Shown: in pieces, positions 1 through 32,199 of the stretch | Layout: every line of letters starts with the position of its first letter | How positions within the stretch are numbered: position 1 is the stretch's first letter | DNA from: Bdellovibrionales bacterium | GTDB taxonomy: Bacteria > Bdellovibrionota > Bdellovibrionia > Bdellovibrionales > JAGQZY01 | Length of the DNA stretch: 64,000 nucleotides | Assembly: GCA_964230645.1 (NCBI GenBank) | Contig: CAXRHT010000002.1 | Coordinates: forward strand, 864,395 to 928,394 | Reading direction: 5' to 3' | Made by a program: the position numbers and the translations under genes | Notes under the pieces: model-generated | What the model saw: the letters and a program-made list of their open reading frames with translations, nothing else | Told to the model about the DNA's origin: nothing | Databases searched by the model: none

Positions 1-1007
1 GGAGTTCCCGGACCACCACTGCCGCCTCCACCGCCATCATCAAACCAACCTTGACCGGGACCATAATCATTCCCCGTTCCACCGCCATTGCCGCCACCTT
101 CGCCGTCGCAGGCCTCCTGTAAGCAACTACTAAATTGATAGTTTAGCGCCTGGGAAGGAGAGGCACTCGCCATATTTCTGGTCATGCAAGACACTTTACC
201 GGAGAAGTCCGAGCACTTTTGACCGCAGGCAACCTTATCTTTGCTGTATAAAGTTAACTCACGACCAAAAACAACCTTTAAACCCGAACTAAGTTCACAA
301 TCGCAATCGGGAACCTGACAAGAGGAGAAGTTTGCAATACTTAGATCACCACTTAACTCTCCACTACTGCTACAAGTGACTCGGGTTCTATTTTCATTAG
401 TGTAGCAACTCTCACTACAACCCACTTCTTCTGTTTTATAAAAATAACGACTTGTGCCTCTTGGGATTCTTAAACCGCCTGGGAGATTACAATAGCAGGT
501 GGGAGTTTGACAGCTTCGATACTGATACTCGCTGGCTGGAGGTCCCTTAATCGCACCGTTAGCGAGACACTCCACCTCTGCGATATTGGACGAGTGGTCA
601 CAGGCCATGGCCGCATCATCACAACTCCCTGTATTTCTCTTATAAAACTTTATTTTTTGACCGACGTTGATAAAAATATCGCCATACTTACAGCGGCAAG
701 GCTGACTCACACAAGCCGGCTCCGTGAAACCTATGTCTCCTGTCAGCTCACCTTCTTGACACTTTACTTTTCCTGCCACCTGACTACAGGTATTCCCACA
801 GCTCACACTTTTTTGAGAATAGACTGTAACCTCGGCCCCTTCCTGAATGATCATATCATTGGGACCAAAACAATAGTTACCTGAGCCTTTTTCATTTTGA
901 GGTGTTTCGGAGGAATTTTCGCTCTGCTCGATTTTGGATTCTTCTACCTGACTGGTGCAGGCACCCAAACCCAACATAAATAGAATGGTGACAAAAAAAC
1001 GAACCAC
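1..1007 (-). CDS. Cys-rich secreted lipoprotein, C-terminus cut by window edge (four tandem Cys-rich modules, then a Gly-rich tail)
   Basis: Not in the ORF track because it runs off the window. The minus frame is open from GTG at 1007 to base 1, with GGGGGA about 8 nt upstream and an in-frame stop at 1025-1023. N-terminus VVRFFVTILFMLGLGAC contains a lipobox. Four ~62-66 aa modules repeat the pattern ...Y(S/K)...C(G/D)..C....G(K)V.C...GEL(T/S)GD...C..P.C. The tail reads GGGNGGGTGNDYGPGQGWFDDGGGGGSGGPG. Confidence 0.6.
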   Translation of the reverse strand, partial: MVRFFVTILFMLGLGACTSQVEESKIEQSENSSETPQNEKGSGNYCFGPNDMIIQEGAEVTVYSQKSVSCGNTCSQVAGKVKCQEGELTGDIGFTEPACVSQPCRCKYGDIFINVGQKIKFYKRNTGSCDDAAMACDHSSNIAEVECLANGAIKGPPASEYQYRSCQTPTCYCNLPGGLRIPRGTSRYFYKTEEVGCSESCYTNENRTRVTCSSSGELSGDLSIANFSSCQVPDCDCELSSGLKVVFGRELTLYSKDKVACGQKCSDFSGKVSCMTRNMASASPSQALNYQFSSCLQEACDGEGGGNGGGTGNDYGPGQGWFDDGGGGGSGGPGT

Positions 1008-1176: not shown

Positions 1177-2436
1177 TTGAAAAAGCTTCTATTTAGCCTC
1201 TATTTGTGCTTACTTTTACCAACTTTTGCTTGGGCACAACAAACTAAAGTGTATTACGCCGTTCGCGGTAAGAAACCTCAGCTCCTTAGAACAAAGTCGG
1301 TCAACCGATGGTCTTGGAAAGAGCCAACTGAGGGAAAACCAAGGATGGTTAACGAAACTCTGTTTGCCCTACCAGGAAATACAATTCGAAACACTGTGAA
1401 ATCTAAGTATGGAGAGGCTCAACTCAAAGGTGGTGGGAAAAAGCTTTTTCTCTCAAGCCACTACCTTACCAACATGGTTTTAGTCTCAGATGGTCAAAGG
1501 AAAGAGAAGTTTTTCATAAAAACAAAATTAGAAAAAAAGCGGATCAGCAATGGCTGCGAGGAGTCTTATCTAATCCTACAGGCCAAAGATGGCAACGAGT
1601 TCCCTGGACCTTTAGGAACTTTCTGTAAAAAGCAAAATGACTCCACTCTCTTTTCTGTGGCGTTTCCTGGAGAGGTCAATTGGTCTGGATCCACTCTTTT
1701 TGAAACAGAAGGTAAAGGAGAAAGCTGGAAGGTTTATGAAATAAGCGAGGCTCAAAGCCAGTCCGGTGGCAAGATTGGCAACTTCTCGGTTCAATATAAA
1801 AATAAAACTTATGAGTACGAACTGCTCTCAAACTATTCTAAAAGTCAGGCTCAAAATGATTCCGAATCCAATCGTTATCAACTTCTGGTTGGAAATGTCA
1901 GTCTCACGGCAAAGGACGCCACCTCCGAGGCCTCTGAAAGTCCTTTCTTTGTAGGTGGACGCTTTCTATCCCGCCCTATTTTTAGCTCTTTACGCTTAGG
2001 AGTGGATTTCAATATCTCTCAATCTTTCAACTCTGACCCTCAAAATCAGCCTCTTAACTACAAAGAGTTCCGTGCTTTCGCCGGTTATGGCCTTTTAGGA
2101 GGAGACTTTGAAATAGCTCCACGAATTTACACCATATTTGCAGACGCAAGTAATCCGAATTCGGGCCTCAAAATGGTGCATCAGCACTTAGGCCTGGGCT
2201 TGGCCTTCATTTTAAAGCTCGGCCCTGACTTTAGAACTCACTTCGTCTATCTACAGAGTGGATTCCTTGGCTCGGTACCGACGACTCACTCCAGTCTGCA
2301 GTTCGAGGCCGCCTATAATTTCGGTGGATTTGAAGCGGGGTTTGGGATCGAAATGAACGACTATGGCTACGAGACACAAACCCGTGGCAATCCCGAGTTC
2401 ACTCAGGCCATTTACTACCTAAGTTTAGGATTCTAG
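1177..2436 (+). CDS. Secreted protein with probable C-terminal outer-membrane beta-barrel (family unknown)
   Basis: Track ORF with TTG start. Signal peptide MKKLLFSLYLCLLLPTFAWA/QQ. The last ~170 aa show alternating hydrophobic strands and end in YYLSLGF, an aromatic C-terminus typical of OM barrels. Confidence 0.6.
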   Translation: MKKLLFSLYLCLLLPTFAWAQQTKVYYAVRGKKPQLLRTKSVNRWSWKEPTEGKPRMVNETLFALPGNTIRNTVKSKYGEAQLKGGGKKLFLSSHYLTNMVLVSDGQRKEKFFIKTKLEKKRISNGCEESYLILQAKDGNEFPGPLGTFCKKQNDSTLFSVAFPGEVNWSGSTLFETEGKGESWKVYEISEAQSQSGGKIGNFSVQYKNKTYEYELLSNYSKSQAQNDSESNRYQLLVGNVSLTAKDATSEASESPFFVGGRFLSRPIFSSLRLGVDFNISQSFNSDPQNQPLNYKEFRAFAGYGLLGGDFEIAPRIYTIFADASNPNSGLKMVHQHLGLGLAFILKLGPDFRTHFVYLQSGFLGSVPTTHSSLQFEAAYNFGGFEAGFGIEMNDYGYETQTRGNPEFTQAIYYLSLGF

Positions 2437-2579: not shown

Positions 2580-3011
2580 ATGGGTGCTAAAAATGTTTGG
2601 GTGATTGGTCGCGATTCCGATTGCGATATCGTAATTAACAGCAAAAACGTCAGCCGTCGACAGGCAGAGATTCACCAAAGTGAAAATATTTTCTTTCTCA
2701 TTAATCACTCTAAACATAAAACCTCCTTTTTAAAAAGAGGAGAGCAAAAAATCCAGGTGGAACGGACTCGTTTAAAAGAAGGAGACCTTCTCTTTTTTGC
2801 TAACGAGGGTCCTTTCGAGTTTGAGTCCTTAATTGACAGTGACCGAACAGTTATTGATTTCAACCCTTTAAGCGGTGAAGACAGTCTGCAAACCACAGAT
2901 CCTGGTAGTGTTGACTTCCAAAAGTATGTGGAAAAAAAGCGATGTTCAGCTTGCGCCACGATTGTCGCTAAAAACGAGAGTCAGTGTCCTGAGTGTGGGA
3001 GCATGATATGA
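2580..3011 (+). CDS. FHA domain protein with C-terminal zinc ribbon
   Basis: FHA-like core VWVIGRDSDCDIVINSKNVSRRQAEI...GDLLFF. C-terminal CSAC-x10-CPEC. The stop overlaps the next start (ATGA at 3008-3011). Confidence 0.8.
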   Translation: MGAKNVWVIGRDSDCDIVINSKNVSRRQAEIHQSENIFFLINHSKHKTSFLKRGEQKIQVERTRLKEGDLLFFANEGPFEFESLIDSDRTVIDFNPLSGEDSLQTTDPGSVDFQKYVEKKRCSACATIVAKNESQCPECGSMI

Positions 3012-3838
3012 GCGCCGCAAAAAAAATAATCGATAAATTTCGTCCAAAGAAGAAGTCTTACAACCTTCCACGCATGGAGGTAAACAATCATATCGAAGGG
3101 TATTCCTTTTTTGATTATGTCGAGCCTTATACCCTTGGGATCATATTTACTTTGTGTGCTGTCTTAGCGATCCATTTAACCGGTGAGAGCTATATCAAGT
3201 CTATGGCTACAGGCGGAAAGTCCTTCCCGTTCACCTTTCAAGGACTTATGTGGCTTGTTATGGGAATTGGTATCGGAACCCTCTGTTTCAAATACGCTCG
3301 TATCAAAGAAAAAAGAGAAAGTTTTCAAATCGACTGCTTCCCCAGGGACCCACACCTTATTTTAGATTCAAAAGAGATTGCCAAAATTCGCCTTAAATTA
3401 AAAATTTATGATCGCGATCACAGTGCTGTTTTTCCGCGAGTCACCACGAAGGTATTAACCAAGTATCAAACCAATAAGTCGGTTGAGGAAGCCCAATCCA
3501 TGCTAGCTTCTCAAGTTGATATCATGTCTCAACGCTCAGACACCGAATACAACAGTTTGAGATACTACTCATGGCTTCTACCTTCGCTAGGATTCATGGG
3601 CACGGTTTACGGAATCTCAGAAGCCGTAGCGGTGGTTGGTCAGTCAACCCCTGATGATCCAGATCTTTTAAAGAATGTGGCCGTCAGTCTCGCAGTGGCT
3701 TTTGACACGACTCTTTTGTCTTTAATTCAAAGTTCTGTAATTCTCTTTTTTATGAACAAGCTTGAATCTCGCGAGGAAAAGCTCAATGTCGCTATTGAAG
3801 AGCGCATCGTCGATGAAGTTATCAGTAGGTTGAAATAG
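3008..3838 (+). CDS. MotA/TolQ/ExbB-family proton-channel protein
   Basis: Four hydrophobic segments. The C-terminal half has the family-type motif LLPSLGFMGTVYGISEAV ... SLAVAFDTTLLSLIQS. The track gives a GTG start at 2993. I prefer ATG 3008 because of the ATGA overlap with the FHA stop. Confidence 0.75.
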   Translation: MSAAKKIIDKFRPKKKSYNLPRMEVNNHIEGYSFFDYVEPYTLGIIFTLCAVLAIHLTGESYIKSMATGGKSFPFTFQGLMWLVMGIGIGTLCFKYARIKEKRESFQIDCFPRDPHLILDSKEIAKIRLKLKIYDRDHSAVFPRVTTKVLTKYQTNKSVEEAQSMLASQVDIMSQRSDTEYNSLRYYSWLLPSLGFMGTVYGISEAVAVVGQSTPDDPDLLKNVAVSLAVAFDTTLLSLIQSSVILFFMNKLESREEKLNVAIEERIVDEVISRLK

Positions 3839-4948
3839 ATGGCTCGAAAGAAAAAGAACCGTGACATCAATGTTTTTAGTGCCTCGGCGATCGATCTTTT
3901 CGCCTCGTCCATGGGCGTATTTATCATTCTTGTTGTTGTTTTATTTCCTTATTTTGGCAACAAATCCAAAATCGAACTCTCCAAGTCAGACACAGAGAGC
4001 ATTAAAAGCCTTGAGACCTTCAAAACACGGGTTAAGAAACAAGAAAAAGTGATTAGCTCTAAAAATGCTAAAATTAAAGAGATTCAAAAAAAGTTGGAAC
4101 AATTGACCGAGAGTGTTCAATCAAGTTCACAAAACCAGAATCAACAAATTAGCTCGCAGCAGGAAAAGATCTCTGAACTGAAGAAGAAACTCGAAGACGC
4201 TCAATCACAGCTTTCCTCAAACTCCTCTCTTGAAGAAATTTTAGAAAAAAAGAATGATACTATTACAAAGCTTGAGACAGAAAGTAACAGCAAAAACAAG
4301 AAAATCTCCAAACTTGAACAAGAAATACAAAGCTTAAAAGAAGTAAGTCAGCGAGCGCTCGCTTCTGTAAAGGATTCCCAATCCATGTCGACACAAGTCT
4401 CTTCTCTTCAAAAAGCCTTGGAGGCTATGAAAGATGAAGTGAAAAAACAAAAAGCCAGCCAAGCCAACAGTAGTCAAACAATCACAGATCTAAAAGAAAA
4501 GCTTGAAAAAGAGAAATCTTTTAGCAGCTCGCTTGAACAAAAGCTTAAGAAAAACAAGGGCCAAGTGGATGGCAAATCCTTTTTAGCGGTTGTGATGAAA
4601 TGGTCCACAGAAAAGCATGATGTGGATCTTGTTCTCAAGGCTCCTGATGGGAAAGTTTTTGATTTTAAACATAAAAAATATGGCAATAGCTATGGGGAGT
4701 TCGTGCTTGATTCTCGCAGTGGACCGGGAGCTGAGGTATGGCAATCACAGCAACTCACACCAGGACGCTATACATTGACCTCAAAGCTCTACAACACTTA
4801 TGGTAACAACAAACCAGCAGAAGTTTCAGCCAGCCTTTTCACCAAAAAAGGGAAGATGGACATTCCCGCCTTCCAACTCTCCCCAAAAAAGAAAACCAAC
4901 TCCGTTTCTTTTGAAGTCGACAAAGAAGGAAAAATTCAGTTTTTCTAG
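3839..4948 (+). CDS. ExbD/TolR-like membrane anchor fused to a ~195-aa coiled coil and a C-terminal beta-rich domain
   Basis: N-terminus MARKKKNRDINVFSASAIDLFASSMGVFIILVVV resembles the ExbD/TolR N-terminal TM with its conserved Asp (E. coli ExbD DINVTPFIDVMLVLLIIF, from memory). Residues ~45-240 are E/K/Q/S/L-rich helix. Residues ~247-369 (HDVDLVLKAPDGKVF...SGPGAEVW...GRYTL) recall DUF2135/YfaP-type domains (from memory). ATG abuts the upstream stop. Confidence 0.6.
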   Translation: MARKKKNRDINVFSASAIDLFASSMGVFIILVVVLFPYFGNKSKIELSKSDTESIKSLETFKTRVKKQEKVISSKNAKIKEIQKKLEQLTESVQSSSQNQNQQISSQQEKISELKKKLEDAQSQLSSNSSLEEILEKKNDTITKLETESNSKNKKISKLEQEIQSLKEVSQRALASVKDSQSMSTQVSSLQKALEAMKDEVKKQKASQANSSQTITDLKEKLEKEKSFSSSLEQKLKKNKGQVDGKSFLAVVMKWSTEKHDVDLVLKAPDGKVFDFKHKKYGNSYGEFVLDSRSGPGAEVWQSQQLTPGRYTLTSKLYNTYGNNKPAEVSASLFTKKGKMDIPAFQLSPKKKTNSVSFEVDKEGKIQFF

Positions 4949-6418
4949 CTAGCGGTGAACAACACCCACTTCTCCTCCCCCCAAAGCTTTGAAGAGAAAA
5001 ATATTATTGCGAATATAGCTTTGCTTGATTTGAATATACTTTGTTTGGGCTTCATAAAGGGAACGGCGAGAATCAAGGCTCACAAGATAACTATCAACTC
5101 CTGAGCGATAACGAAGATCACTAAGCTCAGAGGTTTTTTGAGCGGCTTTAACCACTCTTTGCTGAGCATTGATCTGTTTTTTATAATTTTTCTTTGAAAT
5201 AAGGCCGCTGGCCACTTCGCGGAAAGCCTCTTGGATGGAGTATTCGTAATTAAGTATGCTTTTTTTCTTTCTAATTTTACTCACCTCAAGCCTCGACATA
5301 TTTTGTCCCCAGGTAAAAATTGGTAAATTCACTCGCGGGATAAAACTCCAAGACTGAGAGCGTTCTTCAAAAAGATTATCGAGTTGTGTTGATGACCAAC
5401 CTGCCCGGGTGGTCAATTGGATGGAGGGGAAAAAGGCCGCACGTGCTGCTCCAATGCGAGCATTTTCAGCCAACAACTGATGTTCCGCCTGCCTGATATC
5501 GGGCCTAGCTAGTAGGACCATGGAGGAAAGGTTTTCGGGCAAATTGCGGGTTAATTTTGTGGAATCCTCCAAACTTTGTGGCTTCGGAAGTTCTGTGAGC
5601 GGCTCTCCCACTAGAACGGAGAGGTTTTGTTTGTTAATGGCCGCCAGTCGTTTTCTTTCCAAGACATCAGTTTTAAGGTTTTCGAGCAGGGTTTCCGCTT
5701 GGCGCAGTTCAATTTCTGAAACGACTTTCTGCTTCCAACGCTTTTCAATAATGCCAACAACCTGGGACTGCAAACTCACCGTCTCCTCAGCCAATCTTTG
5801 CAACTCTAGATTGGTCATATAATTGAGATACTCGCTACTCACATCAGCAATTAAGGCGATTCGCTGGCTCGCTTGAACATCGTGACTGGCCAAATATTCG
5901 TGAAGAACAGCCCTCTTAAGACTTCGAATCTTTCCAAAAAAGTCGATCTCATAGGAAGTTAACCCAACTGATAAATTGTACTGATTTTGGATAAATCCCG
6001 TGGGTTGTCCCCCTCCAGCCGAGCCGAAAAGTCCACCTTGTCCAAGAGCATTGCCAGGGATTTTTTGCCTTCTCATTTCCCCTTGCAGATCGAGGTTTGG
6101 AAACAATTCGCTTTTTTGAATGTCATACTGCTCTTCCAGCTCCAAGGTATCAAGGACGCGGCTTAGATATTGTCGGTTATTCCTCAAACTTTTTGATATC
6201 AGTTTTTTCAAGAGTCGATCTTTATAAAAGTTCTTCCAATTAAAACCTTTCAGTTGTTTGCGAAGAGTCTTATTTTGCCCTTTGTTCTCAGAGATAAAAC
6301 TTTTCTCCACCGGCATTTCTGGCTCAGGCCTTTCCGGAGCCAATGTACAACTGGTAAATAAAACAAAAAGAAAAGATAAGAAAAGACGGTTATTCACTGC
6401 CATCCTCCACCGTCTCAA
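4949..6418 (-). CDS. RND efflux outer-membrane factor lipoprotein (NodT/TolC family)
   Basis: Lipobox LFTSC. Length and sequence are typical of OMF proteins. The start overlaps the stop of the RND pump gene. ATG 6403 is an alternative start. Confidence 0.9.
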   Translation of the reverse strand: MRRWRMAVNNRLFLSFLFVLFTSCTLAPERPEPEMPVEKSFISENKGQNKTLRKQLKGFNWKNFYKDRLLKKLISKSLRNNRQYLSRVLDTLELEEQYDIQKSELFPNLDLQGEMRRQKIPGNALGQGGLFGSAGGGQPTGFIQNQYNLSVGLTSYEIDFFGKIRSLKRAVLHEYLASHDVQASQRIALIADVSSEYLNYMTNLELQRLAEETVSLQSQVVGIIEKRWKQKVVSEIELRQAETLLENLKTDVLERKRLAAINKQNLSVLVGEPLTELPKPQSLEDSTKLTRNLPENLSSMVLLARPDIRQAEHQLLAENARIGAARAAFFPSIQLTTRAGWSSTQLDNLFEERSQSWSFIPRVNLPIFTWGQNMSRLEVSKIRKKKSILNYEYSIQEAFREVASGLISKKNYKKQINAQQRVVKAAQKTSELSDLRYRSGVDSYLVSLDSRRSLYEAQTKYIQIKQSYIRNNIFLFKALGGGEVGVVHR

Positions 6419-9400
6419 TATTTCTATTTATAAAAAGAAAGAATAGGGGCGCAAAAAATATAACCAGTAAGGTCGTTGATAGTATTCCGCCCACGAGACT
6501 GAATCCAATGGATTGCTGAGCCCCAGAGCCTGGTCCAGAAGCAAAAACAAGAGGTAAAACTCCAAGTAAAAATGTAAAGGAGGTCATAAGGATGGGGCGA
6601 AACCTCTGTTGACTGGCTTGCATGATGGCGTCCATCATGCACTTGCCTTCTTTGATGGCGGTGATAGCAAACTCTACAATCAGAATGGCATTTTTTGCAG
6701 CCAGCCCCATTGCTAAAAGAATTCCGACTTTAAAATAGACATCATTGGTTTGACCAGATACCAGTGAAAGCAGTGCTGCGCCCACAATCCCCATGGGAAT
6801 CGTTAAAATAATCGCAAAAGGAATAGCCCAGCTCTCATAAAGAGCGGCTAGACTTAGAAAAATAGCTAGTACGGTAATCATATAGAGATAATAAACTTGA
6901 TCGCCTGACTGCTGCTCTTCATAAGACAGACCCACCCACTCAACAGAAAGGCTCTCTTTAAAATTATCCGCCACTTTCATTATTCGCTCCATAGCATCTC
7001 CAGTAGAGAAGCCAGGGCTCGCCTGACCTTGGATAGGAAGAGCGGCGCTTCCATTAAACCTTTCCACTTGGGGAGGACCGTAGTCCCAATAGCCTTTTGA
7101 AAAATCAGAGAAAGAAACCATGGCACCCGACTGAGAGCGAACGTACCAGTCTCCAAGATCACCGGGCTTCATTCTAAAAGGAGCATCCCCTTGCACGAAA
7201 ACTCTTTTCACTCGGTCTTTTTCAATAAAGTCATTCACGTACTGGGTTCCCCAAGCCGCGCTCAGAGTCTCATTCACACTGGCCACACTCACCCCCAGTG
7301 CTTTGGCCTTTTCGTAATCAATATTGATTTTGTATTGAGGGGAATTACCGAGTGAATTAAAACGGCTATAGGATATCTCAGGAGATTGGTTGAGTTGTGC
7401 TAGAAACTCATCTTTGACCTCCACTAAATTTTCCCGACCTTGCCCGGTACGGTCCACCAATTGAAACTCAAAACCTGTAGCACGACCAAGGTCTCTTATA
7501 GGAGGAGGAACGATCACAGTGATCTTAGCGTCACGAATAGCAGAGAGCTCTTTTCTCGCCATATCAGCTATTTCAAAAATGGAAATAAAGGGACCCTCCC
7601 TCTCATCATAGGGAACGGTATGAACAAAGCCAATGGCAGCGTTTTGCCCCGAACCACTGAAGCTAAAACCTCTGACCGTAAAGATATCTTTGATCGAACC
7701 TGACAATCGATCCGCCAGGAAAAAGTCCTCAACTTTTGAAATTGGTTTTTTCATTTCTTCAAAGGTTGCCGTAGGTGGACCTTCTAAAAGGACATAAATA
7801 TTTCCTTGATCCTCGTTGGGAAGAAAAGCGCTGGGAAGATTGAAAAAGCAAAGGCCGATTAAAATGATAACGGCAAGAAAGCTTAAAAAAGCGAGTTTGG
7901 TATGATTGAGAAAATATTTTAACCATTTTTCATAGGTGTTTTTGCTTTTATCATAGGCTGAGTTAAACCAACCAAACCACTTAGACTCACCCATGGACTC
8001 TTTTTTCTTAAAAAGTGTGGCGCAAAGAGAAGGGGTAAAGGTTAAGGCCACAAAAAGAGACAAAGTCATCGCCGAAATCAGTGTCACAGCAAATTGTTTG
8101 TAAATCACTCCCGTCGATCCTGCAAAAAGCAGCATGGGAACGAAAACGGCCCATAGCACAACGGTTGTACCCACGAGGGCACCCGTAAGTTCTTTCATCG
8201 AGTTGTAAGCGGCTTGTTTGGAATCAAGCTCGGAGTCTTCCTCAAGGGACCTTTTAATGTTCTCTGTCACAACGATGGCATCATCCACAAGAAGACCAAT
8301 AGCTAAAACAAGTGCAAAAAGAGTTAATATGTTAATGGAATATTGAAAAAACCAGAGGCTTGCAAACGTCCCAAGGATCACCACGGGTATGGCAATACCT
8401 GGTACAAGTGTTGACCTTATGTTTTGTAAAAACACATACATTACGGCAATCACTAAAAACATCGCCAAAACTAAGGTGATGACCACCTCCCAAATTGAGG
8501 CTCTGATAAAGGGGGTCACGTCCACGGGATAAGCAATTTTTAAATCTTTTGGAAATGTGGGTTCAAGCTCTTTAAGCCTTTCCTTGATCAGGTCCACTGT
8601 CTCAAGGGCGTTGGCATCAGAGGCTAGACTCACTCCAAAACCAGAGGCAGGTTTTCTTTTATACCGTCTAATCGATGAGTAATTTTCAGCACCAATCTCC
8701 ACTCGTGCAATATCCCCCACCCGCACCGATTCTCCATTGGGCAAAGTTCGCAGAAGGATGTTTTCAAACTGCTCTCTAGTGGAAAAAAGACTTTGCGAGG
8801 TCACAGTGGCATTGATTTTCTGCCCTTCAACGGCTGGAGCCGCTCCGATTTGGCCCGAGGCCACCTGATTGTTTTGAGCTCTTACGGCATTGATAACATC
8901 TGTTGCTGTGAGCTTATAGTTAAAAAGCTCCCTTGGATTGAGCCAGATTCTTAAGGCGTGTTGGGGGGCAAAGGCGTTGATTCTTCCTACACCCTTGATA
9001 CGACCGATGGGTTCCACCAAGTTGGAAGCCACAAAATCTCCGATCTCGGTGTCATCCATTTTACTCCCTGGAGAGTAGGCCGCCACAACCACGGCGTAAA
9101 AGCCCGAGGACTTCTCAACGGGGATTCCAAGTTGTCTCACCTGTGCAGGAAGGTTGGAAAGAGCTTGCGAGAGTTTGTTTTGAGTTTGAACTTGCGCGAT
9201 ATCTGGGTTGGCATCGATATCAAAAGTAAGTCTAATTTCTGCACGCCCTGAGGAGGAGCTTGATGACTGGATGTAGCGTAAATTATCAATGGCTATGAGA
9301 TTTTGTTCAATACGCTGAGTGATTGTTTTATCGATCGTCTCTGCTGAGGCTCCAGGATAATTAGCGTTGATTGATACTTGGGGTGGTGCCACTGAAGGGT

Positions 9401-23398: not shown

Positions 23399-25693
23399 CT
23401 AAAGTGTGGCCTCTTTCCATGGCGGATCACTGAGATTATTCGTCTTTTCGTGAATGATCTTATAGAGCAAGTAGTTTCTCATAACCGCTTTCACATAAAA
23501 ACTCGTTTCAGCCCATGGTAGCTCGTCCATCCAAATATCATCTTCAGGACTGGCTCCAATCTTTTTCCACTCCTCGTCCAAGGCGTCACGGTGATCGAGC
23601 CATCGATCCAAATTGCCAGGCCCCACGTTGTAGGAGGCCACCGCAAGAGGAACGATTTTATTATATTTGCCAACCATTCTGGATATAAAATGGGTCCCAA
23701 AGCGAATATTCACCTCGGGCTTAAAAATATCAGGGACAGTACGAAATCTTTTAACCCGCAACCACTTGGCTGTTTCTTTTGCTGTGGGAGAAAGAAGCTG
23801 CATCAGACCGTAAGCTTTTGAAGGGCTAATGGCTCGCCTCATGAAAGCACTTTCTTGCCTCATAATTGCCCACACTAGATTTCGTGAAATATTAAATTCT
23901 TTTTCAGCCGCCTTAACCTCTTTTTCATAATGAGTGGGAAAGGATTCTTTTAAAAAATCCCGGCTGATAAAATCCAGATTAATATCGATGGCTGAGGCGT
24001 AGTCCCCTATGGCTCGGTTTTCTCTCAAGGCGGCTCTCCACAGCTTGGCCCTTACTAAAAAACCACCGGCAGTTTGAGGGTCAGGCAGGAAATCAATCTC
24101 GGTTTCGGCTTCGTCCACCCAACCATAGGAGAGGAGATTTTCAATACGCTTCCAGCGTTCTTTATTGTTCTCTGGCCACCAGTACTGAGTTTGAAATTCC
24201 TCTTTGGAATCAGAAAGAAGATTTTGCAAACCTTTTTTCTCTTCCATACGAACAATTAGCCCGTAGTAGGTTAACGGAAATGTTTTGAAAATAGATTCGG
24301 CAATGTTACTTGATCGATCAGAGCCAATCTTTTTTAAAGAGCGCCAAAGCCAGTAGCGCACTTGCAATTCATATTTGTCAGAACCTTCATGCAAAAGGAA
24401 GCGGTCATACACATTGACGACCGATTTGTATTCCTTCTCCCTAAAATAAAGGAGACCTAAGAAGTACTGAGCCTCGTAACTGGCCTCAGTCCCCGAATAC
24501 TTCTCTTTGAGCTTTTTAAAATAGGACTTTGCCTCAGAAATTTTTCCCAAATAGTAGGCCGAGCGTCCGGCCATCATCATGGCATCTGCCGCCAAAGGAG
24601 AATCCTCCCACTTTTCAGCGGCCGCATCAGCCAAATTGTAGCTTGATTCCTGGTAGCCACGCTCATAAGCATCCGTAGCCCAATGAAAAATAGCAGAGGC
24701 AGGAGCTTCTTTTAATTTGCTTTCAAAGTCTCTTTTTGCCGAACGATATTTAGCGCCTCGGCGGTAAAGAAGTCTCTTATAAAAGCGACTGACCTTGGCT
24801 AAAACTTTCTTAACCCTCTCTGACCCAGGGTATTCGTTTAAAAACTCAACTCCATAGCGAGCCACATTGTAGGATTGTCCTTTTTTCGCCGCACCGGAAA
24901 ACTGTCTCCAGAGTTTTTTCTCTCCGGCCGTCTGATTAAGATCAAGTGAGTATTTGTCGGTCTTTAGAACACCACTCGCCTTTAAGGATTTCAGCCTTGC
25001 AAGAACTGAGCTCTTCTCTTTAAACCGGTAACTTCGAATAAAATTAGCAATGGCTATCTCATTTTTTTTGTTGAGCCAGGCGTACTCCCCCATAATTTCA
25101 TAATAAAAAGCGCGCTGCTTTTCATCCATATAATCGAGAAGATCGTTGTGTTGATCAATAAATGAGCCTAACTCACTTCGCGCTTTATTCAGAGCCGTTT
25201 GCGCTAAGTCTAAAAATAAATCTAAAAACCTTTTTCGATGATCCGGATAAGGGGAATTGAGAAGGGAAACCTTATTTTTTGCTAAAACTTTAAAGGATTT
25301 TAAAAATCGGCTCGCCTTCCACGAAGAGCGCCTTTTATGCAAAGAGTTCAAACAACTCAAATGAGTCTCAGAAATCCAAACTCCAAGTCTTTTATTATCA
25401 GAATTCTTCTCTGCCAACTCCACACAGTTTTCAAACTGACTTTTTAACTGATACCACTTTAACTTTGAAAGCTCCCTTATTTTTTTTGCATTCTTATGTT
25501 CGTGCAAATCTATGGCTTTTTTGAAATCTTTTTTATAGGAAAACTCTTTGGTGTCTAAACCTAAGGCCTTAGGACTTGAGAGGCTAAAAAACAAAACTCC
25601 AAAAAGAATTGGTAACATCAAATACCAAATTCGGTTTCGGTTAAGTCTCCTGGTCTTTTTTCTTACGTCGTTTTTTACTATCAAAATCTTCAT
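23399..25693 (-). CDS. Soluble lytic murein transglycosylase (Slt70-like) with long helical-repeat N-domain
   Basis: C-terminal SLT motifs AIMRQESAF, AYGLMQL, ASYNVGPGN. TPR-like repeats lie upstream. ATG 25618 (MLPILFGVLFFSLSS) is an alternative start that would remove the overlap with batD. Confidence 0.85.
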   Translation of the reverse strand: MKILIVKNDVRKKTRRLNRNRIWYLMLPILFGVLFFSLSSPKALGLDTKEFSYKKDFKKAIDLHEHKNAKKIRELSKLKWYQLKSQFENCVELAEKNSDNKRLGVWISETHLSCLNSLHKRRSSWKASRFLKSFKVLAKNKVSLLNSPYPDHRKRFLDLFLDLAQTALNKARSELGSFIDQHNDLLDYMDEKQRAFYYEIMGEYAWLNKKNEIAIANFIRSYRFKEKSSVLARLKSLKASGVLKTDKYSLDLNQTAGEKKLWRQFSGAAKKGQSYNVARYGVEFLNEYPGSERVKKVLAKVSRFYKRLLYRRGAKYRSAKRDFESKLKEAPASAIFHWATDAYERGYQESSYNLADAAAEKWEDSPLAADAMMMAGRSAYYLGKISEAKSYFKKLKEKYSGTEASYEAQYFLGLLYFREKEYKSVVNVYDRFLLHEGSDKYELQVRYWLWRSLKKIGSDRSSNIAESIFKTFPLTYYGLIVRMEEKKGLQNLLSDSKEEFQTQYWWPENNKERWKRIENLLSYGWVDEAETEIDFLPDPQTAGGFLVRAKLWRAALRENRAIGDYASAIDINLDFISRDFLKESFPTHYEKEVKAAEKEFNISRNLVWAIMRQESAFMRRAISPSKAYGLMQLLSPTAKETAKWLRVKRFRTVPDIFKPEVNIRFGTHFISRMVGKYNKIVPLAVASYNVGPGNLDRWLDHRDALDEEWKKIGASPEDDIWMDELPWAETSFYVKAVMRNYLLYKIIHEKTNNLSDPPWKEATL

Positions 25694-27602
25694 TCCCTTT
25701 ACTTAATTGACAAGCCTTTAGAAGCAAGGATTTTAATTCTTTCACCCTAGCTTCAAGCCCCTTAGTATCTTTAAAGTCTTTCAGGTAGGAGGTGGGTCCA
25801 AATCCAAGCACGCCAAAGAATTCCATTAGTTTTTTAAGAGGCTCTTCAATTTCTCGGCGCACACTCGGATCCGTCTTAGTCAGAACTTTTTCGAGCTGTT
25901 CGTTTGAGCCCCCCTCACCAGTAAGATCACCAAGAACTCTGTAAACTGTGTTGGTCGCTTCAATACCCACGGCCCGAATCTTGTTTTTACTCAAATGCTT
26001 ATCGATTTTAGAAAAACGGGCGGCAATCACTTCTTCTGTGGTCGGATTTTTAATCAACCACCCAGCATCTTTAATAAGCTTTCCTAACGCCAAAAGAAGA
26101 GCGAGAGCATATAGAATAAACCAGTAGTGATACTTGCTTGAACGAGCTACAAAATCAGGGTTCCACTCATTAACAAGACCGGGCAAAATAATTTCTTTTT
26201 CATTAGCCTTGAGCCGCTCTTCCCCAATGGACTGCTGTTTTGAGCCAGGGAGAACTTGCAGCTCTATGGGATCTGACTCCATCAAAACATACTCCCTTTT
26301 TTTAGGATCAAAATAACTGGATTTTAAACCCTCAATTTTCAAAGGGCCTGGTTTATTGGGAATCAAAAGAACTTCAAACTCCTTAAAGCTCTGACCGTTC
26401 TTAAAAAATTGTGACTCATTCTTAATGTCGTATATTTCTAGATTATCACTTAAAGGGAGTTCTGGAAGCTCAATCAGCTTCGCGTTGCCTCGCCCTTCAA
26501 AACGCACTCTTAATGGAAAAGGCTGATGGGTAATGATCGACTGGCTTGGAGCATCGACCGTCATCTGAAACTCTCCCACCGCTCCGGCAAAATTTCCTGG
26601 TTTACCTTCTTCAGGAAGAGGTTTTACAAGGATGGGTATATTATCGCTGGACTTTGTCGCCTGGTGACCTCGCCCAAAACCAAAACCACCAACGATAGTG
26701 GCTTTAGCTTTATAGGGATCAATTTTCCTTTTCCCCTCTTCGATTGGAAAAAGAGCGTAGGAAGCTAAAAGGGCGCGGCTGTAGGGAACGCCATTGATAA
26801 CATCCTGCTCGAAGTTGAGATGAGTGGCGATTTGAATGTCTTCCTTCCAAAATCCTTTTAGCGTTGGATATTTTAAGGTGTCGATGTCACGCACTCGGCC
26901 TCTTGTGTAGAGATACCAGGAGGCTAAAATTTGCTCGCCTTTATAGGCCTCTGTTTTATCGACTTCCGCGATGATAAAAAAGGCGTCTTTTCCCGTAGGG
27001 GGTTCGGTTTGAAAACCTCCACCAGGAACTCCGCCGAACTGACGGCGTAAAAGTTGATTGAACATCTCTTCGGCTTCTGCGAAGGGATCATCTGGTTCTG
27101 TAGGAAAGGGATTAGCCCCTCCTTGCCCAGGAACCTGGCGTCTTCTCTGCGGCCGTTGTGCCTGAGGGCGCCCTTGGCCCGCTGCTAACACTGCAATTTG
27201 AATGGGTTTTGTCTGATAGGTTTTACCACCCACTTCTACACGAATGGGATCAATATTCACCGTCCCCTCTTCCATGGGGGTGTATTGATAGCTATAAATT
27301 TTTGAGTTCACTGTTTTAAAATCAATCCCCTGGCCTGTGCTAACAACGGTGGAGCGTGATTGACTGCTCGTCCAGGAATGAAGCAATTGAACATTTTCAA
27401 TGGTGGGAAGACTCGGTGGAGTGACAGGAGCACTTTTCTCGGAATCAACGCTCACTTTTAAGGTGAAATTACCACCCACCGGAACTTGATTTCGATCCAC
27501 AGTCGCCTGAACTGAAACTTGGGCCTGAGCATTTGAAACAAAACCCATCAGCAGAAAGGAAAGTATGAGAACGGAGGGGCACCAGTTACCAATCCTTTTC
27601 AC
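25641..27602 (-). CDS. batD: BatD-like oxygen-tolerance protein
   Basis: Signal peptide, two repeated beta-rich regions, one late TM and a basic tail. It sits downstream of batA-C. Confidence 0.75.
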   Translation of the reverse strand: MKRIGNWCPSVLILSFLLMGFVSNAQAQVSVQATVDRNQVPVGGNFTLKVSVDSEKSAPVTPPSLPTIENVQLLHSWTSSQSRSTVVSTGQGIDFKTVNSKIYSYQYTPMEEGTVNIDPIRVEVGGKTYQTKPIQIAVLAAGQGRPQAQRPQRRRQVPGQGGANPFPTEPDDPFAEAEEMFNQLLRRQFGGVPGGGFQTEPPTGKDAFFIIAEVDKTEAYKGEQILASWYLYTRGRVRDIDTLKYPTLKGFWKEDIQIATHLNFEQDVINGVPYSRALLASYALFPIEEGKRKIDPYKAKATIVGGFGFGRGHQATKSSDNIPILVKPLPEEGKPGNFAGAVGEFQMTVDAPSQSIITHQPFPLRVRFEGRGNAKLIELPELPLSDNLEIYDIKNESQFFKNGQSFKEFEVLLIPNKPGPLKIEGLKSSYFDPKKREYVLMESDPIELQVLPGSKQQSIGEERLKANEKEIILPGLVNEWNPDFVARSSKYHYWFILYALALLLALGKLIKDAGWLIKNPTTEEVIAARFSKIDKHLSKNKIRAVGIEATNTVYRVLGDLTGEGGSNEQLEKVLTKTDPSVRREIEEPLKKLMEFFGVLGFGPTSYLKDFKDTKGLEARVKELKSLLLKACQLSKGNEDFDSKKRRKKKDQET

Positions 27603-28281
27603 GATCAGCCTCCCTTTTTCCCTTTCTTTCGTGTTTTGCTCGGATTTTCTGTTCTTGTTTTTTCAACTCTTCAAGAATCTTTTTAACATCCCCTTTGGAC
27701 ATTTCTTTACTTTTAAACTGATTGGGTTGAGGTTTATTGGTGAACTTCTGAGGTTCTTTGGGCTGATCTTCGCCCTCACCCTCTTTTGACTGCTCTTTCT
27801 TATCCCCTTTACCTTTACCCTTACCGCTTTGAAAGAGAAGCTCGATATTTGTTTTCACCTCTTTTGAATCAGGGCGCACGTTAAGAGCCAGTTGATAATA
27901 CTCCAAAGCCTTATCAATACCGTCACTGAATTCCTTAAGGGAGTAAAGAACACCCAAGTTAAAATAGGTGGCAAACTCGATTTCAGGGGGCAGAGGTTTT
28001 TGCTTAAGAATCTCCTCATACATTTGCACGGCTTTTTTCTTCTCTTCAGTGGCAATAAATGAAAACCCCATATTGTATTGAAAAATGGGATTAAAAGGGT
28101 CTTCGGTTAAGAGCTGAGTGAGCTCCTCTTGAGCTTCCAATGATTTTTTATCCTCAAGGTAGTTGACCGCTTGGTTATTATTCCAGATATCAAAAACATC
28201 CATGGAGGCTAGCCCCTGAGAGCTTGCAAACAAGACAGGCATAATCAGTAAGCCAAATTTTCCATACGAAGTGTTAGCCAT
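27586..28281 (-). CDS. batC: BatC-like TPR protein with K/E-rich tail
   Basis: TPR-like helices (FNLGVLYSLKEFSDGIDKALEYYQLAL). Operon position is between batB and batD. Confidence 0.65.
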   Translation of the reverse strand: MANTSYGKFGLLIMPVLFASSQGLASMDVFDIWNNNQAVNYLEDKKSLEAQEELTQLLTEDPFNPIFQYNMGFSFIATEEKKKAVQMYEEILKQKPLPPEIEFATYFNLGVLYSLKEFSDGIDKALEYYQLALNVRPDSKEVKTNIELLFQSGKGKGKGDKKEQSKEGEGEDQPKEPQKFTNKPQPNQFKSKEMSKGDVKKILEELKKQEQKIRAKHERKGKREADREKDW

Positions 28282-29335
28282 GGGAGACGAACCTTCCTTT
28301 CCAATTCTTTAATTTCTTTTTACGAGTACCGATAAAGAGTTCCACCAGAGCCAACAAGAAGGCTAGAAATAGTGGAAGTTGGTACTTTTCATCAAAACTC
28401 TCCTGAGAAATAGAGTCAAACTCTGACTTTTCAAGTTTATCAAGGTCTTCTTTGAGTCGTTTCATCTGAGAGCCACCAAAAGTGACATGATAAAAACTTC
28501 CTTTACCGGCTCTAGCGATTTCTTTCATCGACTCCGCGTTCACTTTTGTGATCACTTCATTGTTATTGTTATCTTTCACGTAGCCTTTTAAGTAGCCTCT
28601 TGAATCTCTTTTAGGAATTTTCCCACCTCGCTCAGAGCCAAAAGCCATGGTAAAAACCCTCACTCCTGATTCCACCAAGGTTTTAGCGGCGGTCACAGCG
28701 CCTTCCTCATGATCTTCTCCATCGGAAATGAGAATCACCACACGAGTCATAGATTCCTTCGGCCCCACATTCTCACCGCCTCTTTTAAAAGCTTCTTTGG
28801 CTTCATTGAGGGCTTTAGCAAGCTCTGTCCCTTGTGTTTCTACACTTTGTGGCGAAAGAGTTTCTAAAAACATTTTAAGGGCGGATTTATCAGTGGTCAT
28901 GGGAGAGAGTAAAACGGCCGAACCAGCAAAAGCTAAAATCCCCACCTTATCACCCCCAAGAATATTGAGAAGATGATTGATTTCTTTTTTGGCGTGCTCA
29001 AGACGCGAGGGCTTTACATCCTCGGAGAGCATACTCTTTGAGACATCAATGGCCACCATAAGCTCCACACCACGGCTTGTGATTTGGCGCTTACCTTTAC
29101 CCATTTGCGGCCTGGCTAGAGCAATGATCATAAAAGCCAGTGCGAGGCTCACCAAAATGAACTTCAGGTTACGGCGCACATGGGAGAACTGATCCGTAAA
29201 AAAACCAAAAAGCTTCGGGCCAAAGGCTTTCTTAAGGCGTGACTCAATTCTTTTGTTATTGATCACAAAGTAAAGGGCCAAAAGACCAAGAAGGATGAAG
29301 GCAAAGAAAAAAGACTCATTAGCAAAACGAAACAT
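28274..29335 (-). CDS. batB: BatB-like vWA-domain membrane protein
   Basis: MFRFANESFFF start, two TMs, and the vWA MIDAS motif AIDVSKSM. Confidence 0.85.
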   Translation of the reverse strand: MFRFANESFFFAFILLGLLALYFVINNKRIESRLKKAFGPKLFGFFTDQFSHVRRNLKFILVSLALAFMIIALARPQMGKGKRQITSRGVELMVAIDVSKSMLSEDVKPSRLEHAKKEINHLLNILGGDKVGILAFAGSAVLLSPMTTDKSALKMFLETLSPQSVETQGTELAKALNEAKEAFKRGGENVGPKESMTRVVILISDGEDHEEGAVTAAKTLVESGVRVFTMAFGSERGGKIPKRDSRGYLKGYVKDNNNNEVITKVNAESMKEIARAGKGSFYHVTFGGSQMKRLKEDLDKLEKSEFDSISQESFDEKYQLPLFLAFLLALVELFIGTRKKKLKNWKGRFVSHG

Positions 29336-29336
29336 C

Positions 29337-30341
29337 TTAGAGCCCCCTTCTTAAAACTGTGAGTTGTAAAACAACACCAATGGCATAGAGGAGCACCCCT
29401 AGGAATAAATACTTTTGAAAAAGTTCCGTGTAGCGTGTGAAGCGATTCTCCTCGATTTTACTTTTCTCAAGATCGTTAATATCAGAGAAAACCTTTTCTA
29501 GATTATTGGTATTGTTGGCGCGGTAGTACCGCCCGCCGGTCTCATCAGCCAGTTGTTTTAGTAGCGGCTCATTCACTTTTGAATGAATGGGCTGGTAACG
29601 CTTTACTTTGCGTCCAAACATATCTGTTGAGTATATCGGGAGCTGTGCTTGTCCGTCTCGGCCCACACCGATGGTGTAAATACGAACACCGTATCCTTTA
29701 GCAATCTTCAAAGCCATTTGTGGGTCAATGAGGCCTGTGTTGTTTTCCCCGTCTGTCAATAAAATCACGATCCGTGACTCCGCCGTCGACTCTTTAAGTC
29801 TTGAGACGGCATTGCCCAGTGCCACCCCGATGGCTGTACCCATTTTAATATTGGTTGAAGTTTCAACCTCTTTTAAGTTTTGTTGGAGAAGCTGATAATC
29901 AAGAGTTAAGGGAACACGAGTGTAAGACTCTCCAGAAAAGACGACCATACCTATGCGGTCTGAGACACGTTTAGAAATAAAGTCACCAATGGTTTTTTTC
30001 GCTGACTCCAAGCGGTTTTCAGGTTTCATGTCTTCAATCAGCATAGAGTGTGAGATATCAAGGGCCACCATAATATCGATTCCCTCAACATTGCGGTTGA
30101 CCTTCTCGTCAGTCTCCTGAGGTCTTGCTAGAGCAATAACAACGAAAATGAGACCCAGATATTTTAAAAAATCAGGGAGGTACTTTAAGCGAGCTCTGAT
30201 ACCCGGACGAATTTTCTTTGCAATCGGTACAGTACTTAGTGGCAAAGCCCCGTAACGAGACTTTCTTCGATAAAATTGAATCAGGGCTGCGACCAGCAAC
30301 AGAAGTAAAAGAATAAATGCCCAACTCGAATGCCATACCAT
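29337..30341 (-). CDS. batA: BatA-like vWA-domain membrane protein
   Basis: vWA MIDAS motif ALDISHSM. C-terminal TM. ATG 30341 shares one nt with the upstream TAA (TAATG). The track start 30365 is the alternative. Confidence 0.85.
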   Translation of the reverse strand: MVWHSSWAFILLLLLLVAALIQFYRRKSRYGALPLSTVPIAKKIRPGIRARLKYLPDFLKYLGLIFVVIALARPQETDEKVNRNVEGIDIMVALDISHSMLIEDMKPENRLESAKKTIGDFISKRVSDRIGMVVFSGESYTRVPLTLDYQLLQQNLKEVETSTNIKMGTAIGVALGNAVSRLKESTAESRIVILLTDGENNTGLIDPQMALKIAKGYGVRIYTIGVGRDGQAQLPIYSTDMFGRKVKRYQPIHSKVNEPLLKQLADETGGRYYRANNTNNLEKVFSDINDLEKSKIEENRFTRYTELFQKYLFLGVLLYAIGVVLQLTVLRRGL

Positions 30342-31309
30342 TACGTGTTCTTCCTCACTTTCCAAATATCTTGAGAAACTTTCTTAGCCATTTGGGTCAG
30401 CTGCTTACAATCATGAACTTGGATTTTATCGGAATCTTTCCTGGCTCGATCGAGCTCACTTAAAAACTTTTTAAGACCTCCACCGTAAGCCGGGAATTTC
30501 TTTTTATCTTCCTTGCTCAACGAACGGACGACAAGAGAAGAGTTCCAATCAAGAGCCGGAATATAAAACTCTCTTAACAGGTACATTCTGAAAATTTCAT
30601 CCAATCTCTCAACATAGTTGAGTTTTTTATGCTCGGACCAAGATTCGTCACTAAAAATATACTGTCGACTGAGAGTTCTTAGGTCTTTATTGAACTGATT
30701 AAAAGGCCCAAGGGCCGTGTTGTGCTGTTTTAACTCATCAATCACTTTCTTCATTTGCGCACGACGGTTCAATCGCAAGAGAGTGAAAATCAGGGTTACG
30801 ATCACAAAGGCAGCCAACACTAACCAAATCCAAAAAGGATACTGCAACTTCATTGCGAAAAAGGGCCCATAGGGTTTTTGGCCCTTTTGTTTGATCACAC
30901 TCTTAACCGGAAGCTTAAAGGGCTCGACTCGAACCACTTCCACATTTTGATCAGTGAGGAAAAGTTTGTTGAATTCGTGAGGCTGAGGAACGTAGGTCGT
31001 GGCTTGCGCCTCAAACGAGGTGGCCGTTTGTTTTTTAACATCAAGAATTTTTAGATGATACTCCGTCTTGCCTTTTTCTTTTGTTCCAATCTCTTTGGAA
31101 TAAAATTCGGCCTTGGGTCCGTTACAGATAAGATAAAAAACTTCTCCAACTGTCCACTGCTCATCTTGCGGAGTTCCTTCCACACGACAGTTCCACTTCG
31201 GAAGATCATTAATGTCTTGAGGACGATAAACCTCAACACTCTCTTCATTTTGAGAGTTTGCCTCTTGGTTTTCAGGAGTCTGCTTTTGGGTTGATTCTTG
31301 AGCCATCAA
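30341..31309 (-). CDS. Bat-operon membrane protein (DUF4381-like position)
   Basis: One central TM (FWIWLVLAAFVIVTLIFTLL) followed by RLNRR. Sits between DUF58 and batA, as in other Bat operons (from memory). Confidence 0.55.
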   Translation of the reverse strand: MMAQESTQKQTPENQEANSQNEESVEVYRPQDINDLPKWNCRVEGTPQDEQWTVGEVFYLICNGPKAEFYSKEIGTKEKGKTEYHLKILDVKKQTATSFEAQATTYVPQPHEFNKLFLTDQNVEVVRVEPFKLPVKSVIKQKGQKPYGPFFAMKLQYPFWIWLVLAAFVIVTLIFTLLRLNRRAQMKKVIDELKQHNTALGPFNQFNKDLRTLSRQYIFSDESWSEHKKLNYVERLDEIFRMYLLREFYIPALDWNSSLVVRSLSKEDKKKFPAYGGGLKKFLSELDRARKDSDKIQVHDCKQLTQMAKKVSQDIWKVRKNT

Positions 31310-32184: not shown

Positions 32185-32199
32185 TCACTCCATTTGTTT

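Follow-up and report, generated by a model that had tools for sequence, protein, structure and literature searches.

A probable B-type motor subunit with a coiled-coil stalk and a YfaP-like head in a Bdellovibrionales bacterium

What might an inner-membrane motor subunit do when the periplasmic domain of ExbD gives way to a long helical stalk tipped by a β-sandwich? The question is raised by a 64,000-nucleotide stretch of DNA from a Bdellovibrionales bacterium (GenBank assembly GCA_964230645.1, contig CAXRHT010000002.1, positions 864,395 to 928,394 of the forward strand), hereafter the window, in which one gene encodes a 369-residue protein of this build. A first-pass annotation, made from the letters alone, described an ExbD-like anchor carrying a coiled coil and a compact C-terminal β domain. 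The analysis below suggests that the protein is probably a B subunit, extending across the periplasm, in a non-flagellar 5:2 motor of the MotAB/ExbBD/TolQR class. The gene and its parts are as follows.

3839-4948, plus strand: whole gene, putative B-type motor subunit of 369 residues (anchor, coiled-coil stalk and YfaP-like head), supported by the open reading frame, homologues and synteny.
3839-3880, plus strand: cytoplasmic basic stub, residues 1-14 (MARKKKNRDINVFS), with five Lys or Arg within the first eight residues.
3881-3952, plus strand: single predicted transmembrane ("transpore") helix, residues 15-38, with its hydropathy maximum at residue 18.
3893-3895, plus strand: codon GAT for Asp19 inside the transmembrane helix, a candidate ion-binding residue, read directly from the sequence.
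3983-4558, plus strand: predicted coiled-coil stalk, residues 49-240, probably hinged near 127-130 and 176-182, from periodicity, AlphaFold2 helices and spacer behavior.
4580-4945, plus strand: C-terminal β-sandwich, residues 248-369, a divergent YfaP/DUF2135-like domain, from AlphaFold2, hhalign and invariant positions.

The open reading frame starts with ATG and its product begins MARKKKNRD. The layout of the protein (basic stub, one transmembrane helix, ~190 residues of heptad-periodic helix and a 122-residue all-β domain) agrees with the first-pass description, and all peptides quoted there were found in it. The frame is a genuine gene and not a chance open reading frame: 24 other loci hold homologues that match it in architecture and gene order. 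An exact look-up of the 369-residue sequence found no record. Searches of Pfam, NCBIfam, PADLOC and PDB sequences with the whole protein returned only coiled-coil noise (SMC, Rad50, JetC and filament families); these matches were rejected as compositional.

Only one segment, at about residues 15-38, is hydrophobic; Kyte-Doolittle means over 19 residues peak there at 2.54. By the positive-inside rule, the cluster of basic residues ahead of it implies an N-in/C-out topology with the head in the periplasm. Relatives are called type A when their anchor is like that of the window protein and type B when they carry a MotB_plug anchor. Asp19 is invariant in all 19 aligned type A anchors, and the stub motif (R/K)KNR(E/D)INVFS is kept in type A relatives, the member from Polaribacter being divergent. 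When type A anchors are aligned by hhalign with the MotB-type anchors of the same family (SxxD...GxF), the Asp and the Gly-x-Phe fall in register. Pairwise comparison of 16 type A proteins gives mean identities of 72% for the anchor, 42% for the head and 21.5% for the stalk and linker. The anchor, the most conserved part, behaves like a tightly packed interface, and the stalk like a spacer. No PF02472 or TIGR model matches the protein at E ≤ 1, and MotB_plug matches neither the window protein nor the type A relatives P0003, P0007 and P0043.

Residues 49-240 were characterized by composition, periodicity and prediction. Lys (19%), Ser (18%), Glu (12%), Gln (11%) and Leu (9%) together make up 69% of the segment. 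Its hydrophobic positions recur with a period of 3.5 residues at a power of 2.72 (shuffle mean 0.19; none of 2000 shuffles reached the observed value), and there is no signal at 3.6 or 3.67; this sharp period argues for a coiled coil and not a generic helix. Single-sequence AlphaFold2 predicts helices at residues 49-126, 131-175 and 183-240, and shifts in the heptad register fall near residues 97, 118-125 and 160-167, so that the modeled stalk probably has hinges or stutters. The claim of a coiled coil of periplasmic scale is thus upheld by the heptads and the predicted helices, with the orientation given by the basic N-terminus. The accompanying length of ~29 nm stands only as an upper bound, because it needs one unbroken helix and both register shifts and helix breaks are predicted; fully extended, the stalk could measure up to ~28 nm.

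The head was modeled by AlphaFold2, from a 61-sequence alignment of the last 129 residues, as a nine-strand all-β domain with a mean predicted local distance difference test score (pLDDT) of 95 and a predicted TM-score (pTM) of 0.87. Sequence searches with the domain against Pfam, NCBIfam and the PDB gave nothing significant. An hhalign comparison of the 61-sequence profile (A2) with Escherichia coli YfaP gave a probability of 97.5% (E 8.6e-12) over 111 columns, covering YfaP residues 143-253. On the strength of this profile match, the C-domain is a divergent homologue of the YfaP (DUF2135) domain, as the first-pass annotation had surmised. The pattern common to both, W-T-x-x-x-D-x-D-L…P-x-G…D…G-x-G-P-E…G-x-Y, can be recognized without computation, and the positions invariant in the family alignment are W, D, GPG, G, Y and N; the motifs H-D-x-D and D-x-R-x-GPG-x-E-W mark a conserved face of the head. 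The head always stands at the extreme C-terminus: in all full hits, a median of one residue follows the domain. No second copy of it was found within the window.

The Pfam model for this domain explains why the relationship was not seen directly. PF09906 (DUF2135) is a 48-residue model of YfaP 199-244, whereas the family homology extends over YfaP 143-253. At its gathering threshold the window protein has no match, and only 3 of 61 family members match, weakly (best E 0.0012); matches are few and weak because the model takes in only YfaP 199-244. The true YfaP domain looks like a β-sandwich of ~110 residues, and the Pfam boundary, which would enclose under half of it, looks too narrow. E. coli YfaP has a signal peptide (in L007, the E. 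coli yfaP locus), which indicates that a YfaP-type domain works outside the cytoplasm. A literature search found no mention of DUF2135, and the papers it found naming YfaP give no function.

Structure searches returned no close experimental relative. Foldseek against the PDB gave no hit at E ≤ 0.001 for the C-domain model. The best TM-scores, ~0.45-0.48, were to DUF4425 proteins, a related Parabacteroides protein and MmpS5; these structures were not taken as homologues. A PDB profile search gave a sub-significant likeness (E 0.2-0.3) to the β-jelly-roll of Tk-SP subtilisin, which is a lead only. The best predicted-structure matches, in BFVD, were S0A5K4 of Cellulophaga phage phi4:1 and A0A172Q093 of Acinetobacter phage ME3. 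In each, a domain within an uncharacterized phage protein of ~700 residues superposes with a TM-score of 0.70 (E ~1e-5), closer than any PDB structure.

The immediate upstream gene supplies the context for the anchor.

2993-3838, plus strand: A subunit, MotA/TolQ/ExbB-family channel protein of 281 residues (PF01618, E 7.9e-12; hhalign match to TolQ).

The stop codon of this gene directly precedes the start of the B gene (…AAA TAG ATG…), and AGTAGG stands nine bases upstream. A profile of eight A-subunit orthologues matched TolQ with an hhalign probability of 80% (E 1.4e-5), ExbB with 56% and MotA with 2.5%, so the A subunit is closer to TolQ/ExbB than to MotA. Its T204 (GFMGTVYGI) and T240 (AFDTTLL) align with the two TolQ channel threonines, which we take to be T145 and T178. 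No other ExbD/TolR/MotB-like gene was found among the window neighbors scanned.

Several lines of evidence support the assignment as B subunit: an Asp19 that never varies, a basic, N-in N-terminus, an abutting A gene with no other B-type gene among the neighbors scanned, and the fact that most relatives bear this C-terminal module on bona fide MotB_plug anchors. The anchor is therefore ExbD-like in the sense of a B subunit for a TolQ/ExbB-like channel, a description supported by context and not by sequence statistics. B subunits commonly fall below sequence detection and are assigned by proximity to an A gene (PMC12505986).

The same observations bear on another idea, that the protein is a membrane-anchored coiled-coil scaffold or spacer working independently of any motor, with no functional tie to the channel gene. 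Database matches to the middle region are all generic coiled-coil noise (SMC, Rad50 and filament families), as this idea would have it. Against it stand the abutting A and B genes, whose adjacency is conserved in 21 loci, an invariant membrane-embedded Asp that would be costly unless functional, and the MotB_plug anchors of the paralogous majority. A plain scaffold is extremely improbable.

How widespread is the architecture? Two word-index homologue searches, one with the C-domain and one with the 61-sequence alignment, found two proteins each. The word index is blind to this stalk-plus-head family, and an exhaustive hidden Markov model (HMM) search was needed for that reason. Across 1.84 billion cluster representatives (clusters at 50% identity), the HMM search returned 502 representatives at E ≤ 0.001, 129 of them at E ≤ 1e-30, none carrying a name. 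The arrangement is thus no one-off, and with neither an ExbD nor an OmpA-like periplasmic domain it is as unusual beside canonical ExbD/TolR as the first-pass annotation had held.

The N-termini fall into two kinds. Among the top 150 of the 502, 115 carry a MotB signature (…DERWLVSYADMMTLLFGLFV), which in five examples scanned scores E ~1e-18 on PF13677 MotB_plug; 15 are of the window type, (R/K)KNREINVFSTSAIDLFASSLGVFI, which matches no model; and 20 are mostly fragments. The OmpA-like domain PF00691 is absent from the window protein and from 10 relatives scanned. Since the same stalk and head occur on two kinds of anchor, the module replaces the periplasmic domain of MotB/ExbD-type subunits. 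The window protein belongs to an ExbD/TolR-type minority branch of a large family of MotB-class subunits, mainly from Bdellovibrionota here. The cytoplasmic stubs of type B members (for example P0019, P0033 and P0040) are strikingly rich in His, Asp and Glu (…HEDHDEHDEHVDERW…), in contrast to the basic stubs of E. coli MotB and the window protein, and are possibly metal- or pH-related.

A MotB-like majority invites a second interpretation, in which the motor is static on the periplasmic side. Stalk and head would do no more for the B dimer than the OmpA-like domain does for MotB, fastening it to peptidoglycan or to the outer membrane, and a rotating A pentamer would work on a client in the cytoplasm or inner membrane, perhaps one brought in by an FHA protein; in the MotB-type relatives the client could be a flagellar-type rotor. 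Most relatives do keep the MotB plug, and the A partners of type B relatives resemble MotA/PomA (E ~1e-29, below the NCBIfam cut-offs). The β-sandwich class of the head is also weakly similar to protease-associated jelly rolls, which are binding modules. Against this, a stalk of ~170-210 residues far exceeds the reach needed for peptidoglycan, and no flagellar genes were found beside the motor in the loci sampled. Gene linkage, considered next, adds one point to each side.

The neighboring genes in the window that recur with the motor are the following.

2580-3011, plus strand: small cytoplasmic FHA and zinc-ribbon protein of 143 residues (PF00498, E 1.9e-14), first gene of the FHA-A-B unit.
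1177-2436, plus strand: secreted protein FAM1, 419 residues, a possible outer-membrane partner, neighbor of the motor genes in 16 loci.
1-1007, minus strand: FAM2, a lipoprotein of Cys-rich repeats of which the window edge leaves the N-terminal 335 residues, with lipobox LGAC and Cys-rich modules.

The FHA protein has weak zinc-ribbon matches at its C-terminal residues 117-141. FAM1 has a signal peptide, ends in Phe, and contains two conserved Cys residues that form a pair as well as the invariant motif GKGE(R/H)W; signal peptides and a C-terminal Phe or Tyr recur in 9 of 14 homologues. The window copy of FAM2 has about four tandem Cys-rich modules of ~55 residues each, followed by a Gly-rich tract. 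Neither FAM1 nor FAM2 has a match in Pfam or the PDB.

Synteny was compared across 25 loci, the window and 24 from genome and metagenome collections, with all of their open reading frames clustered together with those of the window. The named genomes among them are metagenome-assembled genomes (MAGs) of Bdellovibrionales or Pseudobdellovibrionaceae and one distant member, Polaribacter vadi. Identity to one Bdellovibrionales MAG is 72% for A, 57% for the FHA protein and 44% for B, values that by themselves would place the window almost certainly in Bdellovibrionota. B has an adjoining A subunit in 21 loci; the remaining four of the 25 lie on contigs that are short or cut near the gene. Eleven of these A subunits are TolQ-like and 10 MotA-like. 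The small FHA gene occurs in 9 loci, always with a TolQ-like A subunit. FAM1 occurs in 16 loci, with both anchor types and in three orders: directly after B, directly before A, or before the FHA gene. A lipoprotein of ~1100 residues with a subtilase (S8) domain is present in 10 loci, and one or two FAM2 lipoproteins flank the motor in 12, usually together with the S8-peptidase lipoprotein; in this genome the S8 gene probably lies just beyond the window start. No separate TonB or TolA gene was seen among the window neighbors or in loci with Pfam-annotated neighbors. The gene order is stable across loci at 30-70% identity, near housekeeping genes (yajC-secDF, ffh and rpsP).

For a static anchor, the strict linkage of a cytoplasmic FHA protein to the TolQ-like version is the favorable point, and the unfavorable one is that the co-conserved partners are secreted proteins or lipoproteins and not cytoplasmic. 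Taken with the length of the stalk and the lack of flagellar neighbors, a purely static role seems unlikely, and a B subunit that reaches across the periplasm is preferred.

Recurrent proteases near a MotAB-like pair raise a further alternative, a conflict or defense system of the Zorya type. Here the motor would act as a sensor of envelope perturbation, by phage or by contact between prey and predator, and would signal through an FHA protein or a kinase to effectors such as proteases. The A subunit has a weak match to ZorA1 (E 5e-4); proteases recur nearby (S8 in Bdellovibrionales and a zinc-ribbon trypsin-like peptidase in Polaribacter); and in Polaribacter a Ser/Thr-kinase-like gene stands where other loci have the FHA gene. 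However, PADLOC gave no significant match for the B protein, the FHA protein or FAM1, the search for ZorB and other defense models returning only coiled-coil noise for the B protein. The long coiled coil of Zorya is cytoplasmic and belongs to ZorA, so neither the subunit nor the membrane side agrees with the present case. Furthermore, S8 and FAM2 are lipoproteins, that is, envelope proteins, and the stable synteny near housekeeping genes resembles a core trait of the lineage and not a mobile island. A defense role is very unlikely.

Individual loci show variations on the gene set. The Polaribacter vadi locus (L006, 3763-8029) has a reversed pair, with B at 5376-6188 (270 residues, anchor MARKPIEIFSISFLDL) followed by A at 6190-6954; it is flanked by the Ser/Thr-kinase-like protein of 537 residues and the zinc-ribbon trypsin-like peptidase, and it lacks FHA, FAM1 and S8. 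This kinase and peptidase echo a theme of phospho-signaling plus protease. In one type A locus (L011, 10230-16927), a T2SSF-family gene and four larger FHA-domain proteins come after the motor, and in another (L012, 5951-6583) a PilZ-domain protein lies between FAM1 and the FHA gene; these neighbors hint at regulation by cyclic di-GMP or phospho-Thr. A European Nucleotide Archive contig (L001) holds a close relative of the whole module with frameshifted A and B genes. Because its coverage is low (1.96x), the frameshifts are probably sequencing errors and not signs of pseudogenes.

How would the proposed B subunit work? In structures of MotAB, ExbBD, TolQR and GldLM motors, two B helices lie inside a pentamer of A subunits. 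Likewise, the N-terminal helix with Asp19 would occupy the pore formed by five copies of the upstream TolQ/ExbB-like protein, with relative rotation driven by the ions that flow past Asp19. We infer the 5:2 stoichiometry on this pattern, and a parallel dimeric coiled coil would be natural because the two B chains would leave the pore side by side. The two chains would form a stalk of ~190 residues, probably hinged, in place of the ExbD fold or the OmpA-like peptidoglycan binder, and the stalk would bear a pair of YfaP-like β-sandwich heads. The heads may bind a partner in the envelope. The leading candidate is FAM1, which is the most constant neighbor and whose linkage survives changes in gene order; the subtilase and Cys-rich lipoproteins are further candidates. 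Proton-motive force would in this way be delivered as force or torque to the outer envelope, like TonB/TolA, GldM or the proposed transpore helix (TPH)-vWA transducers, and the small FHA/zinc-ribbon protein would be a cytoplasmic regulator or docking factor. Of all this, the data establish the architecture, the homologies and the gene linkage; the stoichiometry, the parallel dimer, the docking partner and the output are deduced. By analogy, the stalk may transmit torque as in GldM, transmit a pulling force as in TonB/TolA, or simply anchor the stator as in MotB.

Several results weigh against this reading. In hhalign comparisons of a 19-sequence anchor alignment, similarity to ExbD (E 0.083), TolR (E 0.049) and MotB (E 0.13) is not significant, and the type A anchor compared with the MotB-type anchors of its own family gives P 0.004. 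The first-pass term "ExbD-like anchor" accordingly fails in its narrow sense, as sequence similarity, and survives by context. The predicted helix breaks permit a folded, shorter stalk. Linker length varies across the family from 68 to 402 residues (median 171; 212 in the window protein, whose linker has 0.5% Pro, Pro content being low in general), which makes an exact ruler spanning the periplasm unlikely. FAM1 is absent beside some motors (L008 and L021), and the head could simply be a wall or membrane anchor.

Comparison with known systems places the protein near several of them. Like ExbD/TolR, it has a short basic cytoplasmic N-terminus with a motif (DINVFSASAIDL) resembling DINVTPFIDV of ExbD, a single N-in transmembrane helix with an Asp of the essential type, and a position right after a TolQ/ExbB-like gene (PF01618, ending at 3838) that keeps two channel threonines. 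It differs in lacking a PF02472 match or significant sequence similarity, and in that the ~90-residue ExbD periplasmic domain is replaced by ~190 helical residues and a nine-strand β-sandwich. The likeness to MotB/PomB comes from most relatives, which carry the PF13677 anchor and a MotA-like partner, and from the alignment of the helix Asp and Gly-x-Phe. On the other hand, the window protein has no plug match, the OmpA-like domain is in no member examined, and there are no flagellar neighbors.

The nearest published idea is that of the TPH-vWA transducers (Mol Biol Evol 2025, PMC12204202), proteins whose "transpore helix" inserts into a motor and whose periplasmic domain is non-canonical; they were proposed on similar genomic and AlphaFold3 grounds. 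The concept is the same, although the published transducers have a disordered or Pro-rich linker and a vWA head, in place of the heptad coiled coil and YfaP-like head found here; the taxa and neighboring genes also differ. In E. coli, YfaP shares the homologous C-terminal β-sandwich but is soluble and secreted, with another N-terminal half and other neighbors, in the operon of the α-2-macroglobulin gene yfaS. The first-pass annotation had linked such domains to vWA and α-2-macroglobulin systems; neither kind of gene accompanies the gene described here.

In the GldLM/PorLM system, dimeric single-pass GldM/PorM sits in a 5:2 motor, and its long periplasmic rod is thought to move components associated with the outer membrane. 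It would work in outline as proposed for the window protein, but no GldM family is among the Pfam matches, and the GldM rod is built of globular domains and not a coiled coil. TonB and TolA offer a functional analogy only, as elongated carriers of motor energy from an inner-membrane anchor to the outer membrane. They bind the pentamer from outside through a His helix of the SHLS type, have a Pro-rich or long single-helix linker, and end in a TonB_C fold; the window protein instead has a transmembrane segment (SASAIDLFASSMGVFIILVVVLF) without His, a linker almost free of Pro (0.5%), and no TonB_C or TolA match.

The window also holds other genes. Downstream lies a convergent RND efflux operon on the minus strand (OEP, AcrB-like and MFP), probably unrelated to the motor genes. 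The B-gene stop (4946-4948) abuts the stop of its outer-membrane efflux gene (4949-6418, minus strand), and this stop-to-stop abutment at 4946-4951 leaves no intergenic space for terminators. Farther away are a Bat-like aerotolerance-type operon (25641-33189, minus strand) with BatD (PF13584) at 25641-27602 and a vWA/DUF58 protein at 28274-29335, and a 764-residue SLT transglycosylase at 23399-25693.

Motors of the MotAB/ExbBD/TolQR 5:2 type are the general route by which inner-membrane energy reaches other places in diderm bacteria. The present results define a large unnamed family (at least 502 clusters at 50% identity) in which the B subunit extends into a coiled-coil stalk topped by a YfaP-like head, on MotB-type as well as ExbD/TolR-type anchors. 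More tentatively, and with less than even confidence, the protein, its channel partner, FAM1, the ~1100-residue subtilase lipoprotein and the Cys-rich lipoproteins may make up an undescribed proton-driven trans-envelope machine of Bdellovibrionota. In such a machine the coiled coil would be a drive shaft or tether that powers or gates a protease or adhesin complex of the outer envelope, perhaps during prey attack or movement on surfaces. Gene linkage points toward an envelope set of protease and lipoproteins in predatory-type bacteria, and the orphan DUF2135/YfaP domain gains a first mechanistic context.

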